Below, in pieces: positions 3,851-23,056 of a stretch of 23,118 bases of DNA; within the stretch, counting starts at the first letter, position 1; every line of letters starts with the position of its first letter. The notes beneath the pieces are model-generated. The model had not been told where the DNA came from. It did not search any database and worked only from the letters and a program-made list of their open reading frames with translations. Location: positions 1-23,118 of IMG/VR virus record IMGVR_UViG_2565956626_000019. One strand, given 5' to 3'. Both the position numbers and the translations under genes were made by a program. The stretch comes from a virus (Duplodnaviria; Heunggongvirae; Uroviricota; Caudoviricetes).

Positions 3851-4070
3851 AGTTATCAAAAAGTCCGTACGTTTCTTCTTCTTCAGGTGTAAGGGGAAGA
3901 ATCTCTACTCTATCTATAGATACCTTTTCAATGTACCCATGAGGTCTACTTAAAATTAAAGCTCTCTCATGCCACAGAACTCCAAGAATGTGATACCTTC
4001 CAGCATCGCCTTTTACCCTGGCTCTTCCTTTGATTCTTGGAGGCATAATGCCATATTTTTTCTTTGCCAT
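3849..4070 (-). CDS. Hypothetical small basic protein with acidic C-terminal tail (73 aa), translationally coupled to the upstream Ant-like gene.
   Basis: ATG at 4070-4068 overlaps the upstream TAA in a TAATG arrangement. Sequence MAKKKYGIMPPRIKGRARVKGD...LTPEEEETYGLFDN. No family recognised. Confidence 0.5.
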   Translation of the reverse strand: MAKKKYGIMPPRIKGRARVKGDAGRYHILGVLWHERALILSRPHGYIEKVSIDRVEILPLTPEEEETYGLFDN

Positions 4071-4798
4071 TATGCAACATTACTCCCATGAATCAGGTGT
4101 TGTAGTGCTTTAACACCTTCCGCATTGTAGCGGAATGCTTCCACCTGTTTGCTGGAATGCGCAGATTTATCCAGGAAGAACTTCCCGTACTGCTCAGTTT
4201 TGAGGTTGTTTGCGTTAGCAATGCGACCAATCTTGTTGGCCGTTACTCCAAGCTGCTCTGCAACCTCCCCTGCTGAGTAGTAATGCTCTTCTATTGCCGG
4301 AAGAGGTATTGCATTAAAACCAACGAGCGGGTTGATTATACTTGCTGCCGCTGTCTGCTTTGCCTCAGGCGCAAGATTTGGCATCAGATCGAACAGATTG
4401 GTAACAGCTTCAACCGTCATTTTCAGTGTTCGCGCCTGGCGATACTCAACAAGTCCACTCGACGATTTACCGCTTTTAATGTGCGCTTCTTGCATACTTT
4501 CAAGTTGGTCTACAAGTGAGCGGCGAACAGCTTTAGATTCACGAGCAGCCACTCGAAGGGCTTGCTTAATTGACATAACAACTTTTTCAGAAGTTGTCTT
4601 GTTTGATTTTTGAACTACGAAAATTTCGTAGTGCTCACCTTCAAGTTCATCCTTAATGCGTGCAATAAAGTCGTTATTGCGAACTTCTTTTTCCCCGCAC
4701 TGTCTACGAGCATGATTGACCATCTCTAACAGGTACTGGCTATCAATGGTTTTATCCGTGACAACGGATCCGATGTTTGCTACATTCTTAAAAGTCAT
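4070..4798 (-). CDS. Antirepressor-like protein with C-terminal KilAC/ANT-type domain.
   Basis: 242 aa from ATG at 4798, with AAGGAA 6 nt upstream. C-terminal segment YYSAGEVAEQLGVTANKIGRIANANNLKTEQYGKFF resembles the antirepressor KilAC DNA-binding motif. The track ORF to 4885 begins at a TTG. Confidence 0.6.
   Translation of the reverse strand: MTFKNVANIGSVVTDKTIDSQYLLEMVNHARRQCGEKEVRNNDFIARIKDELEGEHYEIFVVQKSNKTTSEKVVMSIKQALRVAARESKAVRRSLVDQLESMQEAHIKSGKSSSGLVEYRQARTLKMTVEAVTNLFDLMPNLAPEAKQTAAASIINPLVGFNAIPLPAIEEHYYSAGEVAEQLGVTANKIGRIANANNLKTEQYGKFFLDKSAHSSKQVEAFRYNAEGVKALQHLIHGSNVA
4758..4786 (+). promoter_or_regulatory. Candidate sigma70 promoter on the plus strand, antisense to the ant-like gene start (P_sar-like).
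   Basis: -35 GTGACA at 4758-4763, 17-nt spacer, -10 TACATT at 4781-4786. Predicted start about 4793, reading across the ant-like start codon (4796-4798) and its Shine-Dalgarno (4805-4810). Confidence 0.4.
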
Positions 4799-4866
4799 TA
4801 GGCATTCCTTATGTGGTAGTAAGGGTGTGACATAGGCCGCCAGCAGCACACTGGCGGTTTTCTTTT
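4793..4866 (+). ncRNA. Candidate ~75-nt antisense RNA (sar-like) covering the ant-like ribosome-binding site, ending at a plus-strand intrinsic terminator.
   Basis: Plus-strand terminator: stem CCGCCAG (4837-4843), loop CAGCACA, stem CTGGCGG (4851-4857), then TTTTCTTTT (4858-4866). It lies inside a minus-strand operon and would not terminate minus-strand transcripts. Architecture mirrors P22 sar in the immI region. Confidence 0.45.
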
Positions 4867-4885
4867 GCGCCGTCCTGGGCACCAA

Positions 4886-5512
4886 TCAATGAATCCATTC
4901 CTCGCCGCGAAGTTTTGCCAGCATTGGCTGAGCGTTCTTTACGACAAAATTGTTGGGATCAAGATTCTTCATTTCACGAAGAAGCGATTTCTTGGTTTCT
5001 TCTGACATGTAGCGAGTCTCATATGCAATATCGTAAATCCTTCCTGAAAGCTCAGAACCAATTTGCTTCATTCCTGGGTAGATGTGTTTGCACATTTGTT
5101 GACTCTTCTCCATCCACAATTGTAAGTAGCAGAGATTAACCAGTTCTTCGTCAGTAAACTGTTTTGCAATCGGTGAGCATTCTGCCTGCCGATCCAAAAT
5201 ATCCAGCACCCAGCGGCGGAACTCTTTGGCTACCGGAGTGCGAGCAAACATCGCGATTAGGTGGGCACCGCGTAGTGAGAAAACTCGCACTTTTTTGCGA
5301 TAATTTCCTGAGGTACTCACTTCGAGTACCTGAGTCATTCCGGCGCTAAACTCATCGCTATACTTGTTATAAATCATTGTTACTGCACGGCTATTTGCAT
5401 ATTTAAGTGCAGATGCAATATTAGATGATGTAAACCAAACACCATGCATATCACGGGTGGGCACCAACTCAACTCCGTGGAAGTTGTAATCTGATTTTGC
5501 TACAATATTCAT
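4886..5512 (-). CDS. BRO-N/AntA-like antirepressor-family protein.
   Basis: 208 aa from ATG at 5512, with AAGGAAA 7 nt upstream. N-terminal region ...GVELVPTRDMHGVWFTSSNIASALKYANSRAV... and ...LIAMFARTPVAKEFRRWVLDIL match the BRO-N/KilA-N pattern. Alternative ATGs at 5542 and 5617 lack good SD. Confidence 0.65.
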   Translation of the reverse strand: MNIVAKSDYNFHGVELVPTRDMHGVWFTSSNIASALKYANSRAVTMIYNKYSDEFSAGMTQVLEVSTSGNYRKKVRVFSLRGAHLIAMFARTPVAKEFRRWVLDILDRQAECSPIAKQFTDEELVNLCYLQLWMEKSQQMCKHIYPGMKQIGSELSGRIYDIAYETRYMSEETKKSLLREMKNLDPNNFVVKNAQPMLAKLRGEEWIH

Positions 5513-5585
5513 GTTAGTTTCCTTGCATACGGTTACTGACATAGAGGCCCGGTTTGTGTTCGCGCACTGCCGGGCTTCACTATTT

Positions 5586-5759
5586 TTATTGGATGACAAC
5601 ATCGCCCTTTGCCTCAAGTTTCATCAATAACTCCATTCGATAAGCTATCTCTGCCTGAATTGACCTATGGCATCTTTTTGCTGATTCGCGGATATGTGAA
5701 TCAACCTTTTCTGTAAAACGAACCTGACGCGGCTTGATGGAAGATATCTTTTCAGTCAT
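5586..5759 (-). CDS. arc: Arc-like ribbon-helix-helix repressor, 57 aa (not in the supplied ORF track because it is under 60 aa).
   Basis: My translation: MTEKISSIKPRQVRFTEKVDSHIRESAKRCHRSIQAEIAYRMELLMKLEAKGDVVIQ. Aligns with recalled P22 Arc (..FNLRWPREVLDLVRKVAEENGRSVNSEIYQRVMESFKKEG). AGGAG 6 nt upstream of ATG (5759-5757); TAA at 5588-5586; first gene of the minus-strand operon. Confidence 0.6.
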   Translation of the reverse strand: MTEKISSIKPRQVRFTEKVDSHIRESAKRCHRSIQAEIAYRMELLMKLEAKGDVVIQ

Positions 5760-5858: not shown

Positions 5859-6500
5859 ATGAATTTTGACGATCAATTCCCATCAAGAGTATCTCTGGCA
5901 AGACAGTCCAGGGGTATGACGCAGGCGCAGTTGTCAAAATTAGCTGGTGTTGTTCAACGTCAAATAGCTGCATACGAGGGTGGTGAGGCTAAACCACGGC
6001 TTCGTGTATTGCAGGCATTAGCCAACGCATTAGGCACTACGGCTGAGTGGTTAGCTCTGGGTGAAGGTCAGGGGCCTGGAACAAAAAACGTCATGCCTGA
6101 CGTTCTGGTAAAGCAAATACCAATCCTCAAACTAGATGAAGTTATGCATTACCTAAACACAGGTGAACATTCATCGTCTAGATTTCATCCGGCAATATAC
6201 AATGTTGGTGACTCTGCATTTGCATTGACTATTGAAGGTGAAGCTATGACTACAAGTTCAGGTATTAGCTTTCCCAGAGGATCAGTTGTCACGTTCAGCC
6301 CTCTAGTAAAAGCTAAAAGCAAAGATTATGTAATAGCATCATTGGATAAAGAGCAAATATTGAGCTTCAAGCAGGTTTACATTGGTGAAATAGAGACAAA
6401 CTTAGTATCCCTAAACCCAATGTATCCTAATATTCTTGTTAGAAATGAAGATGTTAGTATTTTGGCAACCGCAGTTTACCTTGAAATCCCGTTGCTTTGA
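5859..6500 (+). CDS. Lambda CI-like repressor (XRE HTH plus S24/LexA-like C-terminal domain) that appears non-cleavable.
   Basis: 213 aa. HTH GMTQAQLSKLAGVVQRQIAAYEGG. C-domain DSAFALTIEGEAM...DYVIASL...SFKQV...LNPMYPNIL aligns with lambda CI DSAFWLEVEGNSM...DFCIARL...TFKKL...LNPQYPMIP. Ser149 equivalent is Ala; Lys192 equivalent retained; Ala-Gly scissile site position reads Asp-Glu. Confidence 0.8.
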   Translation: MNFDDQFPSRVSLARQSRGMTQAQLSKLAGVVQRQIAAYEGGEAKPRLRVLQALANALGTTAEWLALGEGQGPGTKNVMPDVLVKQIPILKLDEVMHYLNTGEHSSSRFHPAIYNVGDSAFALTIEGEAMTTSSGISFPRGSVVTFSPLVKAKSKDYVIASLDKEQILSFKQVYIGEIETNLVSLNPMYPNILVRNEDVSILATAVYLEIPLL

Positions 6501-6564
6501 TATCCTTTAGGAAGCGACACATTATCATCCGGTGTTCTGCTCAAAACTAAGGAGTGGCTACTCA

Positions 6565-7203
6565 ATGAAAAAAATAGATATATATAGCGATACATCAGCC
6601 TATGTCATAGGCTCATTGGGTTTTTTAATTTTTTTTGTTTGGCAGTACCAGTCACTATCTCCAGGATGGAGATTTTTGGGGATGTCTTTGATATCACTTG
6701 GTGCAGGAATAGCAACGCAGGTGTTGATGTATCTCTTTAATGGATGGATCTCAAAAAGAGTTGAGAAAAAAAGAGCTACTTCAATATGTAGAAGCCTAGC
6801 TATTCCAGAAGACTCTACAGATCAGGATGATATTGCAAAATGTTGGCGGTATATGATTGCAAGATACTCAAATGAGTTACTGGCAAACAGACTGTCCGAC
6901 TTAATCGGGATCGTAGTTACCTCTGTTGGAACAATCATCAGTATAGGGATATCAATTTGGTATGTCGGGATGATTGTCTATTTTGTTTGGAATAGAGACT
7001 TCAATGAACCTTCCCTTCTTTTTATACCTTTATTTTTCAGGGTATTAGCATTCATATGTGAGTTATTGCTCTCTTTTTTCTGCAATGTTTTGTTCAACAG
7101 ATACCCAGGTGAAGCAAGAAAGTTTAATAAAAACTATGATGAGTTAAGGAGAACAGATCCTTTTCTATCAAGCAAAGAGTTCCGCGATTCCATTCGCAAT
7201 TAA
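6565..7203 (+). CDS. Multi-pass inner-membrane protein (4-5 predicted TM helices), co-operonic with the CI-like gene; function unknown (exclusion/immunity candidate).
   Basis: 212 aa from ATG at 6565, with AAGGAG 10 nt upstream. Hydrophobic segments AYVIGSLGFLIFFVWQY, FLGMSLISLGAGIATQVLMYLF, LIGIVVTSVGTIISIGISIWYVGMIVYFVW, LLFIPLFFRVLAFICELLLSFFCNVLF. Visibly AT-rich. Track ORF start at 6532 is an extension. Confidence 0.6.
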   Translation: MKKIDIYSDTSAYVIGSLGFLIFFVWQYQSLSPGWRFLGMSLISLGAGIATQVLMYLFNGWISKRVEKKRATSICRSLAIPEDSTDQDDIAKCWRYMIARYSNELLANRLSDLIGIVVTSVGTIISIGISIWYVGMIVYFVWNRDFNEPSLLFIPLFFRVLAFICELLLSFFCNVLFNRYPGEARKFNKNYDELRRTDPFLSSKEFRDSIRN

Positions 7204-7224: not shown

Positions 7225-9066
7225 TTAGCGATCAGTTGCATCATTGGCAAGTATTGGTCTGATGGCATTTGCGGCGTTATTCAGCGCTCTTTCATAGGCT
7301 GGCGTTCCAGCTTTAGTGTTTGCCAGACGTAAGAGCGCATTCCTTGCTGCTTTGGACTCATACAAGCGCATCATTGCACCGAAACCAGCCTCAAGCCCCA
7401 TTGATACGCCAAGAGTCGCAGTTGCGCCAATCGTCCTTATCCTGTTGGCTTGCGATTGCCCCGTCTGAGTTACTACATTTGCGGTGTCTGACCTTGCTGT
7501 TTGCTGTAGAACTTCATTAAGAGCATCAAGTTCTTTCATGTGCTTTCCAGAAAAAATAGTGTTGTAAATTTCACCTCCTGACTGAGATTTCAGCTTATTA
7601 ACTTCAGTGATGAACTTGGCTGGAGAGTCGCCGGCCTTTTCCGCTATTTTGCTGACGTAAGCTGCACGCATAGCATCTTTCCCTTTATCATCCAGTGCGC
7701 TCCAGATTCGTTTCACGTCAGATGGTTTTCTGCTTAATACAACGGTATTTATAAGTTCAGGACTGGCTTCACTGCTTGCCTTGTTGAGCTTGTTGGCAAT
7801 GTTTTTATTAAGCACCTTATTATAAACGTTTGCATAATCGGAATTTGCTTTAAGGTATTTTGCTGCGTCTGATGCACCGAGGTTTTTAGCAACTGCGTTA
7901 CGAAGGTCTTTTGACATTGCATTCTCTACCATATTGGTAGCTGCTTTTGCCTGGTTGGGGAAGACCATAGCATCTCCCTGAACATTAGATCTAAATGCTG
8001 TTCTGTGCTGACGCAAGAGATCAAACGTAACATCCAAATCAGTTGCAGGGTTTGCTAATTCTTCACGTAGGTTACGCAAGGATGTAAGCAGGCTTTGATT
8101 GGCAGACGTCCCAAGCCGTTCCTGTCTTGCGATCGCTGTATTCAGAGCATTCATGGTATTTGTGGTATCAACTGCGGCATTACCCATTTTATTGGTGACG
8201 TCATTGATAACAGCGCCAGCGGCATCCTTCCGCCCCCTTAACGTGGTGGTAAGAGATTTCACCACATCATCAGGGTTGTACTCACCAAAACGGTCAAAAT
8301 AATTGCTTACCAGTTTACTACGCGTTGCATATTGCTCCGCTCTCTTTGAGCCTGTCCCGAGCAAAGCCCCCTCGGCATCCTGAGTAAGGCCACGAGTGAA
8401 AGCATTTTTCGGCGGGATAACATCAGATGTCATTGGTGTCACGCCCATCGATTCTGATGTGGCAATTTTCTTCGCCACTTCTGGCGCAATATCACCTTTT
8501 ATAGCCGTTATTCCACGCCCTATTCCCTTTGCTGCTGCGGAAAGAACACCCTGAGCGGCAAGGTTAACTCCGGCATTTTTGGCTGCATTTTGTGCGAAAT
8601 CGCCTTTCTGATTTGCGGCCTCTGCCAGTGATCCAATAGCCATGCTTCCTGCCATTCCAACTCCTGGAACTAAATACCCGCCAATTGTTTCTCCAGCTTG
8701 CGCATAAGGGTCTGTTGGTCGATCTACTGGACGATAAACATCATCCAAAACCTTGGGGCCACCAAGACCCTGGCTGATTGCATTAATCAGACTTGCGCCA
8801 CCCTGCAATACGTCAAATGGTATGTTTACCAGACCACGGCCAGCCTGTTCTGCAATTTGCCCTGCACTTTGACCACCAGTGAGCCAATCGCCAGCTTGTT
8901 GCATCAATGATGGTTCTTCACGTGCTGGTTCATTATTGGCCTGATTAACTGTTTGTTGCTGAACAGCCTGACCAGCAAAATACTCATCAATGGCGGTGCC
9001 AATATCTTCCGTGCTCGTACCATCAGGAAAGGTAAATGTCTTACCGTTTGCAGTTACTTTCATCAT
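7225..9066 (-). CDS. Ejection (pilot/E) protein, P22 gp16-like.
   Basis: 613 aa; size and position match P22 gp16 (the last gene before the accessory region). ATG pair at 9066/9063 overlaps the upstream stop. Confidence 0.65.
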
Positions 9067-18964: not shown

Positions 18965-20380
18965 TCAACCTACACCACAAGGAATTGAGTAACTGGAATA
19001 GTCGGGTTGCGCAGCCGACTCCGGGCAATGCATACACATCATCAGCGCATCAGCCAGGTTAGGAGATGGAATACCGAGCTTCTGCTTCATTTCGACCTTA
19101 GTCATAAGCTCCAGCTTCCCGTTGTTATTGAATTTGCGCTGAATCTGCGTCAGTTCTGCAAACAGCTTCTCCAGCATCTTCTCGCCTATCGCTTCTTTGT
19201 CGAAACTCAGCATGTCGTCGGGGTCTGCATACTCACCGTGAACAACCGCCCGATATGTCAGATACAGCCTGTCAGCCAGCGCGTAATAGAATTGCGCTCG
19301 CTTATTGCGGAACACATCGCCAATAGTGCGAACGTTGTCGCCCTGCACGACTTCATCAGCCCATGCCCCGGCCTGATACGGTGCATCTTCATCGAATGGC
19401 GATTCGCTGCCCTTGAACATCGTGGCGGTGATTTTCTTGCCGGAGAACGCTTCCGTTGTCTGTCTGCGCAGCCCTGCACCGACACCATCGCCATCCCACA
19501 GGTAATGGTCAGCGCCGTCTTCAATCGCCAGCGAAGTAGCCCAGTCAGCACCCTCGTTGATGTCCATCAGCAGACCTTCGGCAATGCGCTTAACTACCGA
19601 ACCGTGACGCGATGCATAACCTTTAGCATCTGGCCCTGTATCTGATGGGTCATGCGCAGAGACAACAGCGCCTTTCGCTTTCCATCCGAGTTTCTTGTGC
19701 GCATCGGTTGCGGCTTCAAGCCATTCACGTTTGATGATTGCCATATCACTTGCGCTTACCGGCTCACCAAGCCAGATGTGACGATACAGTGTCGGGTTTC
19801 TGCGTTTACACTCTTCCATCTCCAGACGGAGAACTTCAGGAAAGTGCGGGTTGTCGGTGTAGTTCACCGTCAGCAGACAAATATCATCGGGAGGGTTTAC
19901 TACGAATCGCTGATAGGTATCGTCGAGTATGTTCTTCGGGTTAAAGCTCACCCATATTTCAGAGAACGGCTTACGGATGGTTGGTATCAGGATATCCCAT
20001 GATTCCTTCGTTACCGCTTCCGCTTCTTCCACCCAGCAGATATCAATGCCTTCGAGAGATTTAATCTTCGTCGGGTTGTTTTTGATGCCGTAGAACATGA
20101 ATTCAGCATTCGTTCCGAGATGACGAATCATTGAACGCTGAATTTCAAACTCAGCCGAATACCCTTCACGCTCGATAGTGTCTTCAAGCAACCGGATTAC
20201 CGAATCGCTGATACTGTTTTGCAGTTCACGAGCGCAGAGAATACGCACTGGCTGCCGACGCACCGCTTCAACAAGCAGTCTCGCGATTGCCCATGACTTA
20301 CCGCTACCTCGACCGCCTTTGGCGACTTTGTAGCGATGCGCCTCAATGAACGGTTCAAAGATAGGATTAATCGAGGTCAT
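18965..20380 (-). CDS. Terminase large subunit, Sf6 gp2-like.
   Basis: 471 aa. Walker A KVAKGGRGSGKSW near the N-terminus; start overlaps the small-terminase stop (ATGA). Confidence 0.9.
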   Translation of the reverse strand: MTSINPIFEPFIEAHRYKVAKGGRGSGKSWAIARLLVEAVRRQPVRILCARELQNSISDSVIRLLEDTIEREGYSAEFEIQRSMIRHLGTNAEFMFYGIKNNPTKIKSLEGIDICWVEEAEAVTKESWDILIPTIRKPFSEIWVSFNPKNILDDTYQRFVVNPPDDICLLTVNYTDNPHFPEVLRLEMEECKRRNPTLYRHIWLGEPVSASDMAIIKREWLEAATDAHKKLGWKAKGAVVSAHDPSDTGPDAKGYASRHGSVVKRIAEGLLMDINEGADWATSLAIEDGADHYLWDGDGVGAGLRRQTTEAFSGKKITATMFKGSESPFDEDAPYQAGAWADEVVQGDNVRTIGDVFRNKRAQFYYALADRLYLTYRAVVHGEYADPDDMLSFDKEAIGEKMLEKLFAELTQIQRKFNNNGKLELMTKVEMKQKLGIPSPNLADALMMCMHCPESAAQPDYSSYSIPCGVG

Positions 20381-20802
20381 TTTCCGAATAGAGTGCTCAT
20401 CGGTGATGTTTCAATCTGAATTGCGCCGCCGTCCTTACCGACAAGCTCGTTAGTTACCTTGTCGCCATACTTACGGGGATTCATTCGGGCCAGCGCCCAT
20501 TTGCGGGTATCAACGCGAAGTCTTGCCTTTGCCACCTCGGCGGCATCAGGGATTACGTCGTCAGCAATTTCGAATATCTCTTCGAAAATAGAGTCGGCCC
20601 GAGTCTCTGTTGCCTTCGCGTACTGGTCACGAAACTCCTGATGTTCAGCCAGCCAGCGAAAAACTGATGTTTTGCTCGGCATTCCTGGGCGTTCGCAAAC
20701 TTTGCGCAGACTCTCACCGGAGGAAAGCAATGCGCAAATGTCATTAGCCACCTCCGGCATATAATCAGAGGGGCGACCACCTTTCTTTTTCTCAGTCGCC
20801 AT
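20377..20802 (-). CDS. Terminase small subunit, Sf6 gp1-like.
   Basis: 141 aa. MATEKKKGGRPSDYMPEVANDICALLSSGESLRKVCERPGMPSKTSVFRWL (HTH-like) resembles my recollection of Sf6 small terminase. Confidence 0.8.
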   Translation of the reverse strand: MATEKKKGGRPSDYMPEVANDICALLSSGESLRKVCERPGMPSKTSVFRWLAEHQEFRDQYAKATETRADSIFEEIFEIADDVIPDAAEVAKARLRVDTRKWALARMNPRKYGDKVTNELVGKDGGAIQIETSPMSTLFGK

Positions 20803-20881: not shown

Positions 20882-21124
20882 TTACGCTCCCGTAGTGAAC
20901 AGGTCTAACGCTTCCTTCGATTTACGCACCGCTTCGATTGTGCGGGTCGTGATATCTGAATTAGCGCCGCCTGACTGGAAGTGAATTTTGAATAGCTCAA
21001 GCTTCAGCTCGTCAGTGCCAATGAACTGAAATGCTTCCTCTGCGGCTGCGTTCTGGTTCATGACCAGTTTGTAAATCTCTAACTGGAATTTCTGTTCTTC
21101 AGTCATGGGAATAATCTCTGCCAT
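20882..21124 (-). CDS. Hypothetical protein (80 aa).
   Basis: ATG at 21124 with GGAG 6 nt upstream; no recognisable family. Confidence 0.4.
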   Translation of the reverse strand: MAEIIPMTEEQKFQLEIYKLVMNQNAAAEEAFQFIGTDELKLELFKIHFQSGGANSDITTRTIEAVRKSKEALDLFTTGA

Positions 21125-21227: not shown

Positions 21228-21608
21228 CTACTGTTCGCTTAACTTCTGCTTCAGCAAGTAACCTTCGAGCATCCAGATTTTGTTTACAGCATTCTGCCGG
21301 GCAATCTTCCGACCAATTTCTGCATCAAAATTTTCCGGACTTGCACAGGCGCTCTCGCCGGTGACGGTGAAGCCATTCTTCAGCACCAGTACGCAGAAAG
21401 TGAGCAACTTCAATGGTGATAAATCACGATCGCCTTCTTCTGGTTTTTCCCTGCCACAATATTCGTTGCTGGAAATGGCACCATTTCGTCCATCATAAGC
21501 AGTAAAGTAATGCTCGCTTTTAATCACGTCTTCGATGTGCTGCGGGGTGATTCGCGGAGCGGTTTTGCCTTTCTCAACGATTTCTTTTTCGATTTGCTGG
21601 TCGTTCAT
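21228..21608 (-). CDS. Hypothetical phage protein; my tentative guess is the N4-gp49/Sf6-gp66-like family.
   Basis: 126 aa; C-terminal motif ...ENFDAEIGRKIARQNAVNKIWMLEGYLL. The family assignment rests on memory of the family and on position upstream of the terminase genes, not on a search. Confidence 0.45.
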   Translation of the reverse strand: MNDQQIEKEIVEKGKTAPRITPQHIEDVIKSEHYFTAYDGRNGAISSNEYCGREKPEEGDRDLSPLKLLTFCVLVLKNGFTVTGESACASPENFDAEIGRKIARQNAVNKIWMLEGYLLKQKLSEQ

Positions 21609-21924
21609 AATTATGACCCTGTAGAGTGGTTGCTTGATTAGGATGTCTTTCCATCAGTCCGCCACCACAAAGAATCTTTTTTGCCATAAGGCTGGAGGTT
21701 CATCTTTCAGTGGCTGCCAGTGTTATTTCCCCACTTTTTGGCTTGGGTTGTTTCGTGGTACTGCCGTTAACTGGTGGCGCACAGATTTAGTTAAATCCGT
21801 TCTCGCCTGAACTATCTTTTACATACCCGGATTGTGGGGATGTAAATCACGGTTTCATTATCAAGCCCACCAGTAGATGGGCTTTGTAATGAAGAGTTGT
21901 TATGAAAATTGCTCTAAACAAGCA

Positions 21925-22413
21925 TTAATAGCCATCAGAAGTAATCGCTACAGATTTCAATCCCTCAATGTCATCCTTGGACAGGGCGAACCATTCACCG
22001 TGCTTTCTCTTTGCGGCAAATTTGCGATGAAGCATGTTTTCAGTTTCTCTTCCACCAGGGATCAGGCACTCAAGCTTCAAGCAGTCTGGTCCAGAGTTGC
22101 CAAGCGATTTGATGCGTTGTGGAATGTTGGATGAATACCCAATTTTGGTTAGCCCAGTTTTCTTCGATGACAAAACGTATACCTGAGGAGGTTCTTTTCT
22201 CTGGTCTTCCATTACACGTCTCATTGTTGCCATAAGTCCGCCGTGCATCAGCATTTCAACAAAGAACGCTGACCGAACACCTGACGACTTAAGCATGCCA
22301 GAAAATTCACTTGCCAATTCCATTAACTCTGCGATGTTTTCAGGAACTTTTTGGCAGTTATCTTCCTTGTATAAGGAAATCATTCTTTGAAGCTTTTCTT
22401 CTAATTGGTTCAT
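21925..22413 (-). CDS. T5orf172 (GIY-YIG-superfamily-like) domain protein with unknown ~75-aa helical N-terminal region.
   Basis: C-terminal motifs QVYVLSSKKTGLTKIGYSSNIPQRIKSLG...ENMLHRKFAAKRKHGEWFAL fit the T5orf172/MUG113 pattern. ATG at 22413; track start at 22449 is a GTG. Visibly AT-rich. Confidence 0.6.
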   Translation of the reverse strand: MNQLEEKLQRMISLYKEDNCQKVPENIAELMELASEFSGMLKSSGVRSAFFVEMLMHGGLMATMRRVMEDQRKEPPQVYVLSSKKTGLTKIGYSSNIPQRIKSLGNSGPDCLKLECLIPGGRETENMLHRKFAAKRKHGEWFALSKDDIEGLKSVAITSDGY

Positions 22414-22560
22414 AGCGTCTTTACCTTTTAGAAAGTGAGCCTGTCTCACAGAAAAGCCGCCCCGAGATGGTCGCCACCATATACGGCAGTTCTCAGGCTC
22501 AACTTTCTGAAAGGCTCGGGTGATGTAATATGCGCGTGAGATGCGCTGTGAAATTCAGAT

Positions 22561-22590
22561 GTAAAAAAAGCCCCGCATCGCGAGGCTCAT
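22561..22590 (-). terminator. Intrinsic terminator downstream of the Rz/Rz1 lysis genes.
   Basis: Minus-strand RNA: stem AGCCUCGC, loop GAU, stem GCGGGGCU (8 bp with one G-U pair), followed by UUUUUUU (plus-strand A-run 22563-22569). Confidence 0.6.
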
Positions 22591-22618: not shown

Positions 22619-23056
22619 TTATTTCAGGCACTGAGTCCTGATGTACTCCTGCAGGTAGTTAACCTGCACGGTTATCTTGTCGATTCCACTTCGGAGACGG
22701 TAATAATTGAGTTCAGCATCTGCTGTAAGTCTTGGGCTTTCTCCATCGCCCATGCTGCTGGCTCCGGTCGTTGACTTTGCACAGGTGGCGGCGACTTGCA
22801 GGCGCTTACGCCCAGCAGAAACATCAGCACGAAGGCTTTCGATAGTAGCGTTAGCATCAGCAAGCTCCTTTGTGTATCTGGCGTCGAGTTCTGCTACATC
22901 ACGTTGACGCTTCTGCATGTCAGCGATTGTGGATGTGGCCTTATCGCGCTGCTCTTTGTAGGCGATTGCGTTATCACGGTAATGATTAACAGCCCATGAC
23001 AGGCAGACGATGATACAGATAACCAGAGCAGAGATAATCGCGGTGACTCTGCTCAT
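22619..23056 (-). CDS. Rz: i-spanin Rz (lysis).
   Basis: 145 aa. N-terminal 30 residues [31 protein letters not shown] match recalled lambda Rz, including the TM anchor; coiled-coil periplasmic domain. ATG overlaps the upstream endolysin stop. Confidence 0.9.
22672..22857 (-). CDS. Rz1: o-spanin Rz1 lipoprotein, embedded in the +1 frame of Rz.
   Basis: 61 aa from ATG at 22857. Lipobox LLGVSAC followed by proline-rich [18 protein letters not shown], like lambda Rz1. Track ORF start at 22863 is a TTG. Confidence 0.75.

Follow-up and report, generated by a model that had tools for sequence, protein, structure and literature searches.

A predicted T5orf172/GIY-YIG nuclease gene and its shared, covarying leader in a cargo slot between the lysis and packaging genes of a P22-like Escherichia coli prophage

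What is a gene for a T5orf172-type protein doing between the lysis cassette and the packaging genes of a lambdoid prophage, and how is it carried there? The question arises from the right-hand end of a 23,118-nucleotide stretch of DNA (IMG/VR record IMGVR_UViG_2565956626_000019, positions 1 to 23,118; hereafter the window). The window covers one arm of an E. coli prophage of P22-like (Lederbergvirus) type. It opens with an integrase gene followed by a P22-type tailspike gene, and its late genes all run on the minus strand up to Rz/Rz1 (Table 1). The nearest complete phages, CUS-3 and phiv205-1, are about 95% identical to it over 58% of its length. The placement of the gene in the initial annotation was confirmed, with Rz/Rz1 on one side and the terminase genes on the other; two small genes, N4-gp49/Sf6-gp66-like and DUF2560, separate the T5orf172 ORF from the small terminase gene.

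Table 1. Features of the window and of the T5orf172 cassette. Positions count from the first nucleotide of the window.
Feature	Position	Strand	Remarks
Integrase gene	1-1158	plus	opens the window
P22-type tailspike gene			next after the integrase gene; head-binding domain
TerL gene	18965-20380	minus	
Small terminase gene	20377-20802	minus	Sf6-type
DUF2560 gene	20882-21124	minus	
N4-gp49/Sf6-gp66-like gene	21228-21608	minus	
Non-coding linker downstream of the slot	21642-21781	minus	conserved in lambda-, P22- and HK97-type backgrounds, with any cargo
Downstream hairpin	21863-21885	minus	AAAGCCCA-TCTACTG-GTGGGCTT; lacks a T-run
Cargo-specific DNA	~21892-22408		blastn boundaries
CDS of the 162-aa T5orf172-family protein	21925-22413	minus	ATG 22413, stop 21925-21927; ORF list and conserved start
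C-terminal T5orf172/MUG113 (GIY-YIG-fold) domain	21928-22188	minus	residues 76-162
N-terminal domain	22189-22413	minus	residues 1-75; acidic three-helix bundle, family-specific
Leader hairpin (predicted)	22423-22515	minus	93 nt; Shine-Dalgarno AAGG (22423-22426 region) paired with upstream CCUUU
Small G+C hairpin	22532-22546	minus	GCGC-ATCTCAC-GCGC; follows the terminator and precedes the long hairpin
Intrinsic terminator after Rz/Rz1	22568-22588	minus	GAGCCTCGC-GAT-GCGGGGCTT, T-run to ~22561; 9-bp stem with 6 G-C pairs; terminator scan
Rz/Rz1	22619-23056	minus	Rz: Pfam Phage_lysis, 127.7 bits

The gene was initially delimited as the ORF 21925-22449. A minus-strand ORF is indeed present over this interval and would encode 174 amino acids if begun at its first in-frame start codon, GTG 22449. 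An internal ATG at 22413, giving a protein of 162 amino acids, is the start in most homologs, and the RefSeq copies in HK106 and E. coli are annotated from the equivalent ATG. The 36 nucleotides at 22414-22449 are part of a leader common to unrelated ORFs, and homology with cassettes bearing such ORFs extends exactly to ATG 22413. The GTG start was rejected on these grounds, and the true coding sequence is most likely 21925-22413; the gene stands, and its start moves inward. The GC content of the ORF (0.429) lies below that of the window (0.47) and of the adjacent late genes (0.47-0.52). This puts it in the lowest 0.3 percentile of 489-nt windows between 8000 and 23118, but only at the 20th percentile over the whole window. 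The gene had been described as visibly AT-rich, which is right with respect to its flanks; the bias is nonetheless modest.

The C-terminal part of the protein was predicted to be a T5orf172-type domain, and profile searches agree. Pfam MUG113 (PF13455) matched with 55.7 bits (cut-off 22.3) and T5orf172 (PF10544) with 40.8 bits (cut-off 20); homologs in epsilon34 and at two further viral loci, L010 and L012 (see below), likewise exceed the Pfam T5orf172/MUG113 thresholds. The generic Pfam GIY-YIG profile gave only 12.5 bits, below threshold, with residues 77-104 aligned to profile positions 3-30. PHROGs assigned the protein to phrog_4284, labelled "unknown function". An NCBIfam profile search with the protein gave no match, and nothing was found in PDB sequence searches with either the protein or the family profile. 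An AlphaFold2 model (pLDDT 87.6) shows three long helices at residues 3-71, as expected from the helical N-terminal domain of the initial annotation, and then a beta-beta-alpha-beta-alpha-beta-alpha domain that contains the beta-beta-alpha-beta-alpha core of the GIY-YIG alpha/beta fold. When the C-terminal domain was used in a fold search, the top seven places all went to GIY-YIG nucleases, the model lying nearest to SLX1 and I-TevI. BRO proteins also figure among the fold matches.

Judging from the model, the protein carries the GIY-YIG fold together with the family's Tyr / Lys-Ile-Gly / Arg / Glu motif set. Across 11 aligned homologs there is no variation at Y79, K90-I-G, R100, E125 or H129, and hardly any at E140. 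The spacing of Y79-K90-R100 (11 and 10 residues) equals that of Y6-Y17-R27 in I-TevI, and E125-x-x-L-H parallels E75-x-x-W-I; the I-TevI sequence used for this comparison was verified against 1MK0/1LN0. The correspondence of R100/E125 to I-TevI R27/E75 is drawn from motif spacing, since hhalign yielded no usable alignment between the C-domain profile and I-TevI. The second motif tyrosine is replaced by lysine, and helix 1 has no His/Tyr after the arginine. Odn (ICP1 Gp88), a T5orf172 nuclease whose Glu-dependent activity has been demonstrated, is alike in the putative catalytic Arg/Glu positions, in a helix 1 without His/Tyr and in having Lys for the second Tyr (PMC8263062). The modelled fold and the conserved motif residues are consistent with the possible nucleic-acid-targeting role put forward initially.

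The N-terminal domain is acidic (pI 5.4, versus 9.4 for the basic C-terminal domain), and its fold matches are generic helical bundles only. No DNA-binding domain was found in Pfam, NCBIfam or PHROGs, and a CxxC Zn-finger motif is also absent. A profile of this domain retrieved just 6 proteins from 1.84 billion representatives, all from the same family or fragments of it, which rules out a widespread sensor or DNA-binding module. A part in dimerisation, in regulation or autoinhibition, or in protein docking would be more likely than one in reading DNA sequence. The N- and C-terminal domains are both under purifying selection, dN/dS being 0.14-0.15 for the two domains and spanning 0.12-0.18 in comparisons with 86%-identical homologs.

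The same gene is found elsewhere in the same position, after Rz and a terminator: HK106 gp64 (YP_007151734) is 98.9% identical to it, and the copies in an E. coli prophage (WP_016245257) and in Chlobot (XNS39617) are 100% identical. RefSeq names the HK106 and E. coli copies "GIY-YIG nuclease family protein", and GenBank lists the Chlobot copy as "hypothetical protein". The gene is nevertheless rare. Flanking DNA is shared by 441 phage records, none of which spans 80% of a 2.8-kb query centered on the gene; few of these records carry the gene, and it is not conserved core. By tblastn, close copies (99-100% identity) occur in 3 of 50,697 phage records, namely HK106 (two accessions) and Chlobot; in epsilon34, g341c and NM-3 the slot is taken by a relative at 31% identity. 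In epsilon34 (gp68) the 31% identity extends over both domains and the leader is the same; g341c gp64 is likewise a distant relative. Among complete E. coli genomes, 80 of 5,426 carry the gene and 2,057 share some of the query. A scan of one genome per species (185,579 species) returned a single contig with the gene, probably mis-binned.

Where the gene does occur, it moves between backgrounds. The same allele (98-100% nucleotide identity) lies about 200 nt after Rz in every one of 45 viral contigs, with packaging genes of lambda type (DUF1398/YlcI/Nu1-A) at 21 loci, of P22/Sf6 type at 17, and of HK97 type (HNH gp74) at locus L039 and in HK106. Across loci the ORF is 98.4-100% identical, while the leader falls to as little as 85% and Rz to 77-97%, and in many loci identity drops abruptly at the ATG. 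Phages exchange the ORF as a unit, and it lies where the lysis module meets any of at least three unrelated packaging modules. In other phages, relatives of 87% and 49% identity are placed between lysis and terminase genes. A 51% relative (L010) lies inside a lambda-like tail operon, between the tail-tube and tail-chaperone genes, with terminators on both sides and a GC content of 0.34 versus 0.45 for its flanks; a 38% relative (L012) lies between other structural genes (GC 0.395 versus 0.57-0.61). The suggestion that the gene is horizontally acquired cargo is borne out by its rarity in phages and E. coli and by the presence of one allele in three packaging backgrounds. The opposite possibility, a core gene of uniform composition, is at odds with the small number of relatives that carry the gene and with its departure in GC from the flanks, which is larger elsewhere than in the window.

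The slot itself has been filled in different ways. It is empty in Sf6 and contains Rha+ORF11CD3 in CUS-3 and phiKp_30, KilA-N+ORF11CD3 and an HNH_3 endonuclease in Dewey, and a Tad2-like protein in Huey; its flanks are conserved at 92-98% between relatives with different content. Conserved segments bound the cargo-specific DNA at 22409-22588 upstream and at 21843-21891 and 21642-21781 downstream. The 3' boundary was set by blastn against Sf6, phiKp_30, Dewey, Huey and Chlobot. The downstream hairpin sits in segment 21843-21891, which is conserved behind other cargo and places the 3' edge of the cargo-specific DNA at about 21892. The linker further downstream is 94-98% identical (blastn) in HK106, epsilon34, Chlobot, CUS-3, phiKp_30, Dewey, Huey, Sf6 and E. 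coli 214-4, and the region 21609-21924 has a folding z-score of -4.2. At the equivalent downstream place the L010 and L012 homologs have a terminator-like hairpin with a T-rich tail, flagged by the scan in the former and read by eye in the latter.

On the upstream side, the strong terminator that had been located after Rz/Rz1 at 22561-22590 was recovered, stem and T-run included. It forms the 5' edge of the cassette, and an equivalent precedes nearly all of 38 distinct leader copies inspected. The small G+C hairpin that follows is found at the same position in most copies, with paired changes at L010 (GTGC...GCAC) and L054 (GCGCC...GGCGC), and adjoins the terminator T-run in several of the 38 variants. 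What the initial annotation missed is that the terminator and the region upstream of the gene belong to a conserved cassette scaffold in which unrelated cargo ORFs are found as well. No promoter-like site was found on the minus strand between 20800 and 23118 in a scan restricted to sigma-70 consensus promoters, nor was a conserved -35/-10 pair seen by eye across the 38 leader variants. A cassette-specific sigma-70 promoter was rejected, the only candidates being weak and non-conserved (e.g. TTCACA-N16-TATTAC in the window).

The 150 nt from the terminator to the ATG are conserved ahead of unrelated ORFs. A degenerate pattern from the 3' end of the leader retrieved more than 100 viral loci, which were pooled with loci fetched earlier. 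The ORFs beginning at the ATG were Rha-like in 59 cases, KilA-N in 11, members of a 234-aa family in 2 and T5orf172 in 45, the last figure being inflated by the 45 loci found through the T5orf172 protein itself. HNH_3 endonuclease ORFs are also preceded by the same leader. Identical 130-nt leaders can carry different cargo: one variant precedes Rha and T5orf172 ORFs, and another KilA-N, Rha and T5orf172 ORFs.

The leader is predicted to fold into a long hairpin (minimum free energy -43.3 kcal/mol; z = -3.96 for the 196-nt leader), and this structure is strongly covarying, as judged from the alignments. In a seed alignment of 16 sequences, 96.1% of cells are paired and 9 of the 31 base pairs show compensatory changes; shuffled seed alignments gave 2.3 +/- 1.0 compensatory pairs, with none of 500 reaching the observed 9, and slid-control alignments paired at only 42-55%. 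A covariance model built from the seed found copies outside it, upstream of the 87% and 49% T5orf172 homologs as well as at second sites before HNH_3 ORFs, a KilA-N-like ORF and an unknown ORF. With 39 distinct sequences the paired fraction is 98.1% and 25 of the 31 pairs are compensatory, in an alignment that was fitted to the model and leans towards the structure. The presence of G-U pairs on the sense strand argues for an RNA rather than a DNA structure. Rfam searches of the leader and of the whole window matched no family, and nothing usable describing the rha leader or this slot was found in the searchable literature, older subscription papers on rha lying outside its scope.

Our preferred reading, held tentatively and at slightly less than even confidence, is that of an interchangeable late-operon cassette for a small endonuclease of the T5orf172 branch of the GIY-YIG family, late-transcribed, translationally throttled, and serving homing-like spread or phage-phage conflict. 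The cassette would be transcribed by read-through in the Q-antiterminated late operon, as suggested by the way it is oriented, by the terminator upstream and by the lack of a detected promoter. The predicted leader hairpin would then limit translation, by analogy with I-TevI, segB and mobE, whose ribosome-binding sites are masked by hairpins (PMC2988022). The T4 hairpin contains a late promoter through which the ribosome-binding site becomes free, whereas none is evident in the leader of the window. The product would act as a GIY-YIG-type endonuclease, as do Odn and SNIPE (PMC8263062, PMC13190303), and would cut the DNA of co-infecting or co-resident relatives without the cassette. The break would stimulate recombination and favor inheritance of the cassette together with the adjacent module, amounting to homing-like marker exclusion or phage-phage competition. 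This last step is suggested by the position at the lysis/packaging junction in three backgrounds, by an identity higher than that of the flanks, and by the occurrence of T5orf172 genes at exchange boundaries (PMC10448857).

How close does this come to a homing endonuclease gene (HEG)? The T5orf172 genes of ICP1, T5-like and other phages are putative HEGs; they lie near terminase genes more often than anywhere else and occupy the boundaries of genetic exchange (PMC10448857). The present gene resembles them in Pfam family, in standing free near terminase or structural genes at such boundaries, and in its modular build, with a variable N-terminal part joined to a C-terminal T5orf172 domain. It belongs to a nuclease class recognized for HEGs, and its slot shows intergenic presence/absence or replacement polymorphism. 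Against homing, no sequence-specific DNA-binding module was found: CapR, DUF723 or DUF4397 Zn-finger DNA-binding repeats, present in 87% of T5orf172 HEGs (PMC10448857), are absent here, and Odn has a RepA_N domain where this protein has an acidic three-helix bundle without relatives or evident DNA-binding function. ICP1 and T5-like phages have many T5orf172 copies, as opposed to one per genome here, in a temperate lambdoid phage. In the T4-type HEG products SegB, MobE and I-TevI, the nuclease domain is N-terminal and followed by DNA-binding modules, whereas here it is C-terminal; homing, demonstrated for T4-type HEGs, is here a possibility. Because it has no DNA-recognition module, we do not file the gene as a HEG and keep our confidence short of even. 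The commonest cargo behind the leader is Rha or KilA-N rather than a nuclease, so that the scaffold itself does not imply homing. The abrupt drop in identity at the ATG would fit recombination in short conserved boundaries as well as, or better than, co-conversion from a break, and the identity profile (98-100% in the gene, down to 85% in the leader) is compatible with cleavage and gene conversion without being diagnostic of them.

It is possible, though somewhat unlikely, that the prophage uses the gene for defense or superinfection exclusion. The nuclease would be produced, or switched on, either in the lysogen or upon infection, and would degrade incoming foreign phage DNA or trigger abortive infection; on sensing a phage protein, the N-terminal bundle would release the basic nuclease domain, an autoinhibition suggested by the pairing of an acidic with a basic domain. 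The gene is present in prophages of 80 of the 5,426 E. coli genomes, and other conflict genes use the slot (the Tad2-like gene of Huey, KilA-N proteins). The sole PADLOC match, to candidate system PDC-S57, points the same way (E = 8e-6), but it is weak (23.6 bits) and confined to the nuclease domain. SNIPE and PD-T4-3 share with the protein an effector domain fold and a location on mobile elements or prophages (PMC13190303). However, SNIPE has a transmembrane segment and DUF4041, and PD-T4-3 a different partner domain, none of which was detected; PADLOC and Pfam gave neither a catalogued defense-nuclease profile nor the SNIPE architecture, and the AlphaFold2 model is a soluble helical bundle. 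The N-terminal domain, moreover, is paired with no other effector, unlike typical sensor modules. The insulated, low-GC architecture is moron-like: as with HK97 gp15 and lambda bor, an extra gene of deviant composition lies among late genes, bounded by terminators and polymorphic for presence or absence. Deviant composition is seen here, and the ORF is followed by a terminator in L010 and by a terminator-like hairpin in L012; in the window itself the hairpin that follows has no T-run. A gene counts as a moron only if it comes with its own promoter and the prophage expresses it, whereas no promoter was detected here and the Shine-Dalgarno sequence is sequestered. The lack of a sigma-70 promoter, both on the coding strand and as a conserved element of the leader variants, speaks against the defense reading, and the upstream terminator together with Shine-Dalgarno sequestration disfavors constitutive expression in the lysogen.

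The interchangeability of Rha, KilA-N and T5orf172 ORFs behind identical leaders would also suit a domesticated, non-catalytic T5orf172 protein acting, like Rha and KilA-N, as a regulator or as a DNA- or protein-binding factor in late development. Iyer, Koonin and Aravind reportedly placed such domains, in 2002, in one domain-shuffling network of viral regulators, and the appearance of BRO proteins among the fold matches agrees with this. CapR of PLE, a regulator derived from a HEG, offers a precedent (PMC10448857). The lysine at the second motif tyrosine and the missing His/Tyr after the arginine of helix 1 might be taken for loss of catalysis, but the active nuclease Odn also has Lys-Ile-Gly and also lacks the helix-1 His/Tyr (PMC8263062). 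With the Arg and Glu that would correspond to the catalytic residues of GIY-YIG nucleases invariant, E140 nearly so, and an insulation tight enough to suggest a toxic product, a regulator of this kind is quite improbable. Most improbable, in our estimate, is a late nuclease of general purpose, attacking the DNA of host or competitors without specificity so as to salvage nucleotides or clear DNA ahead of packaging, with no selfish or defensive role. The location in the late operon beside the packaging genes, the basic catalytic domain and the missing specificity module would agree with it; yet the gene is dispensable, most relatives being without it, late expression would come too late for salvage, and a non-specific enzyme would hit the phage's own concatemers too.

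The preferred reading, a late-operon endonuclease cassette, could be carried further than we think likely. The terminator, the small hairpin and the Shine-Dalgarno-sequestering hairpin might together constitute a cis-regulatory "adaptor" RNA, so far undescribed, in temperate phages of enterobacteria. Thanks to it, genes with toxic or conflict functions (T5orf172 and HNH nucleases, Rha, KilA-N) could be exchanged ORF for ORF, their expression being confined to a specific late or triggered condition. The T5orf172 protein, with its orphan acidic N-terminal domain, would then be not a classical homing enzyme but a new kind of nuclease weapon, guided by protein and aimed at co-resident prophages or satellites.

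As far as its sequence tells, the gene is an ordinary and already annotated accessory nuclease (predicted) of the T5orf172/GIY-YIG type, and the shared leader is the more novel part of the locus. The gene adds a T5orf172 example at a module boundary of phage mosaicism, in temperate lambdoid rather than lytic ICP1- or T5-like phages. The leader presents one covarying structure ahead of ORFs from no fewer than four unrelated families, which are swapped precisely at the start codon, and its covariance model would provide a simple sequence handle for finding such cargo slots. HK106 or the E. coli prophage would offer a tractable system for asking if module exchange is driven by T5orf172 nucleases. 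Control of translation by the hairpin, if real, would explain how nucleases and regulators that may be toxic can be kept by lambdoid phages within their late operon.

Cargo ORFs of the Rha, KilA-N, HNH and T5orf172 types are all preceded by one conserved leader RNA, in which a terminator is followed by a small GC hairpin and then by a 93-nt hairpin sequestering the Shine-Dalgarno sequence. Covariation is strong in this structure, for which no matching family was found in Rfam. Diverged extra copies of the leader occur at further sites within four phage contigs. The ORFs lying 3' of them comprise two HNH_3-type endonucleases, both of 170 aa (one assigned by Pfam, the other by motif), a KilA-N-like ORF assigned by eye and an unknown ORF of 141 aa. 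On the other side of the slot, the non-coding linker is 94-98% conserved across lambda-, P22- and HK97-type phages, independently of the cargo; the 316 nt around it (window 21609-21924) gave a folding z of -4.2.

Features of the leader, the linker and the immI-like region
Feature	Location	Strand	Remark
Leader terminator	window 22568-22588	-	conserved leader
Leader small GC hairpin	window 22532-22546	-	conserved leader
Leader 93-nt hairpin	window 22423-22515	-	conserved leader
Linker, ~140 nt	window 21642-21781		downstream of slot
Extra leader copy	L053 633-741		downstream of terminator
Extra leader copy	L031 1437-1542		downstream of terminator
Extra leader copy	L121 341-434		downstream of terminator
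Extra leader copy	L058 8534-8625		downstream of terminator
P22-type antirepressor (Bro-N + P22_AR_C)	window 4886-5617	-	
LexA-like repressor (HTH_3 + Peptidase_S24)	window 5859-6500	+	divergent

The antirepressor adjoins the divergent repressor in an immI-like region of the window. Pfam returned no match for the neighbouring ORFs (window 4070-4885, 6532-7203 and 7225-9066).

Variant and decayed copies of the T5orf172 gene were also seen (P0002, P0010-P0012, P0015; L055 1089-1346). The representative of a 114-member cluster among the variants carries D110Y together with E140G, a change at a nearly invariant residue. Several decayed copies are 95-111-aa fragments, some with the N-domain only, and one copy in a lambda-type prophage is truncated at its 5' end. 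A gene 100% identical to the window's lies on a short contig (L177, JAEWTL010000129.1; 2.9 kb) from a MAG labelled Bacillota; the likeliest source of this contig is an enterobacterial phage whose DNA was mis-binned.

In phage Huey, the same slot holds a 166-aa ORF (L009 997-1497), deposited as 'anti-CRISPR protein', whose domain is Thoeris anti-defence 2 (Tad2-like). Counter-defence genes are therefore among the slot's cargo. A search of the Huey slot for an alignable counterpart to the window's terminator-leader segment found none.

A complete cassette, consisting of terminator, leader, a 163-aa T5orf172 homolog and a second terminator, was found in a lambda-like phage (L010 4810-5540, Logan SRR32625600 contig). 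Its insertion between the tail-tube and tail-assembly-chaperone genes shows that the cassette can reach a new site as an entire unit, and not solely as an exchanged ORF.
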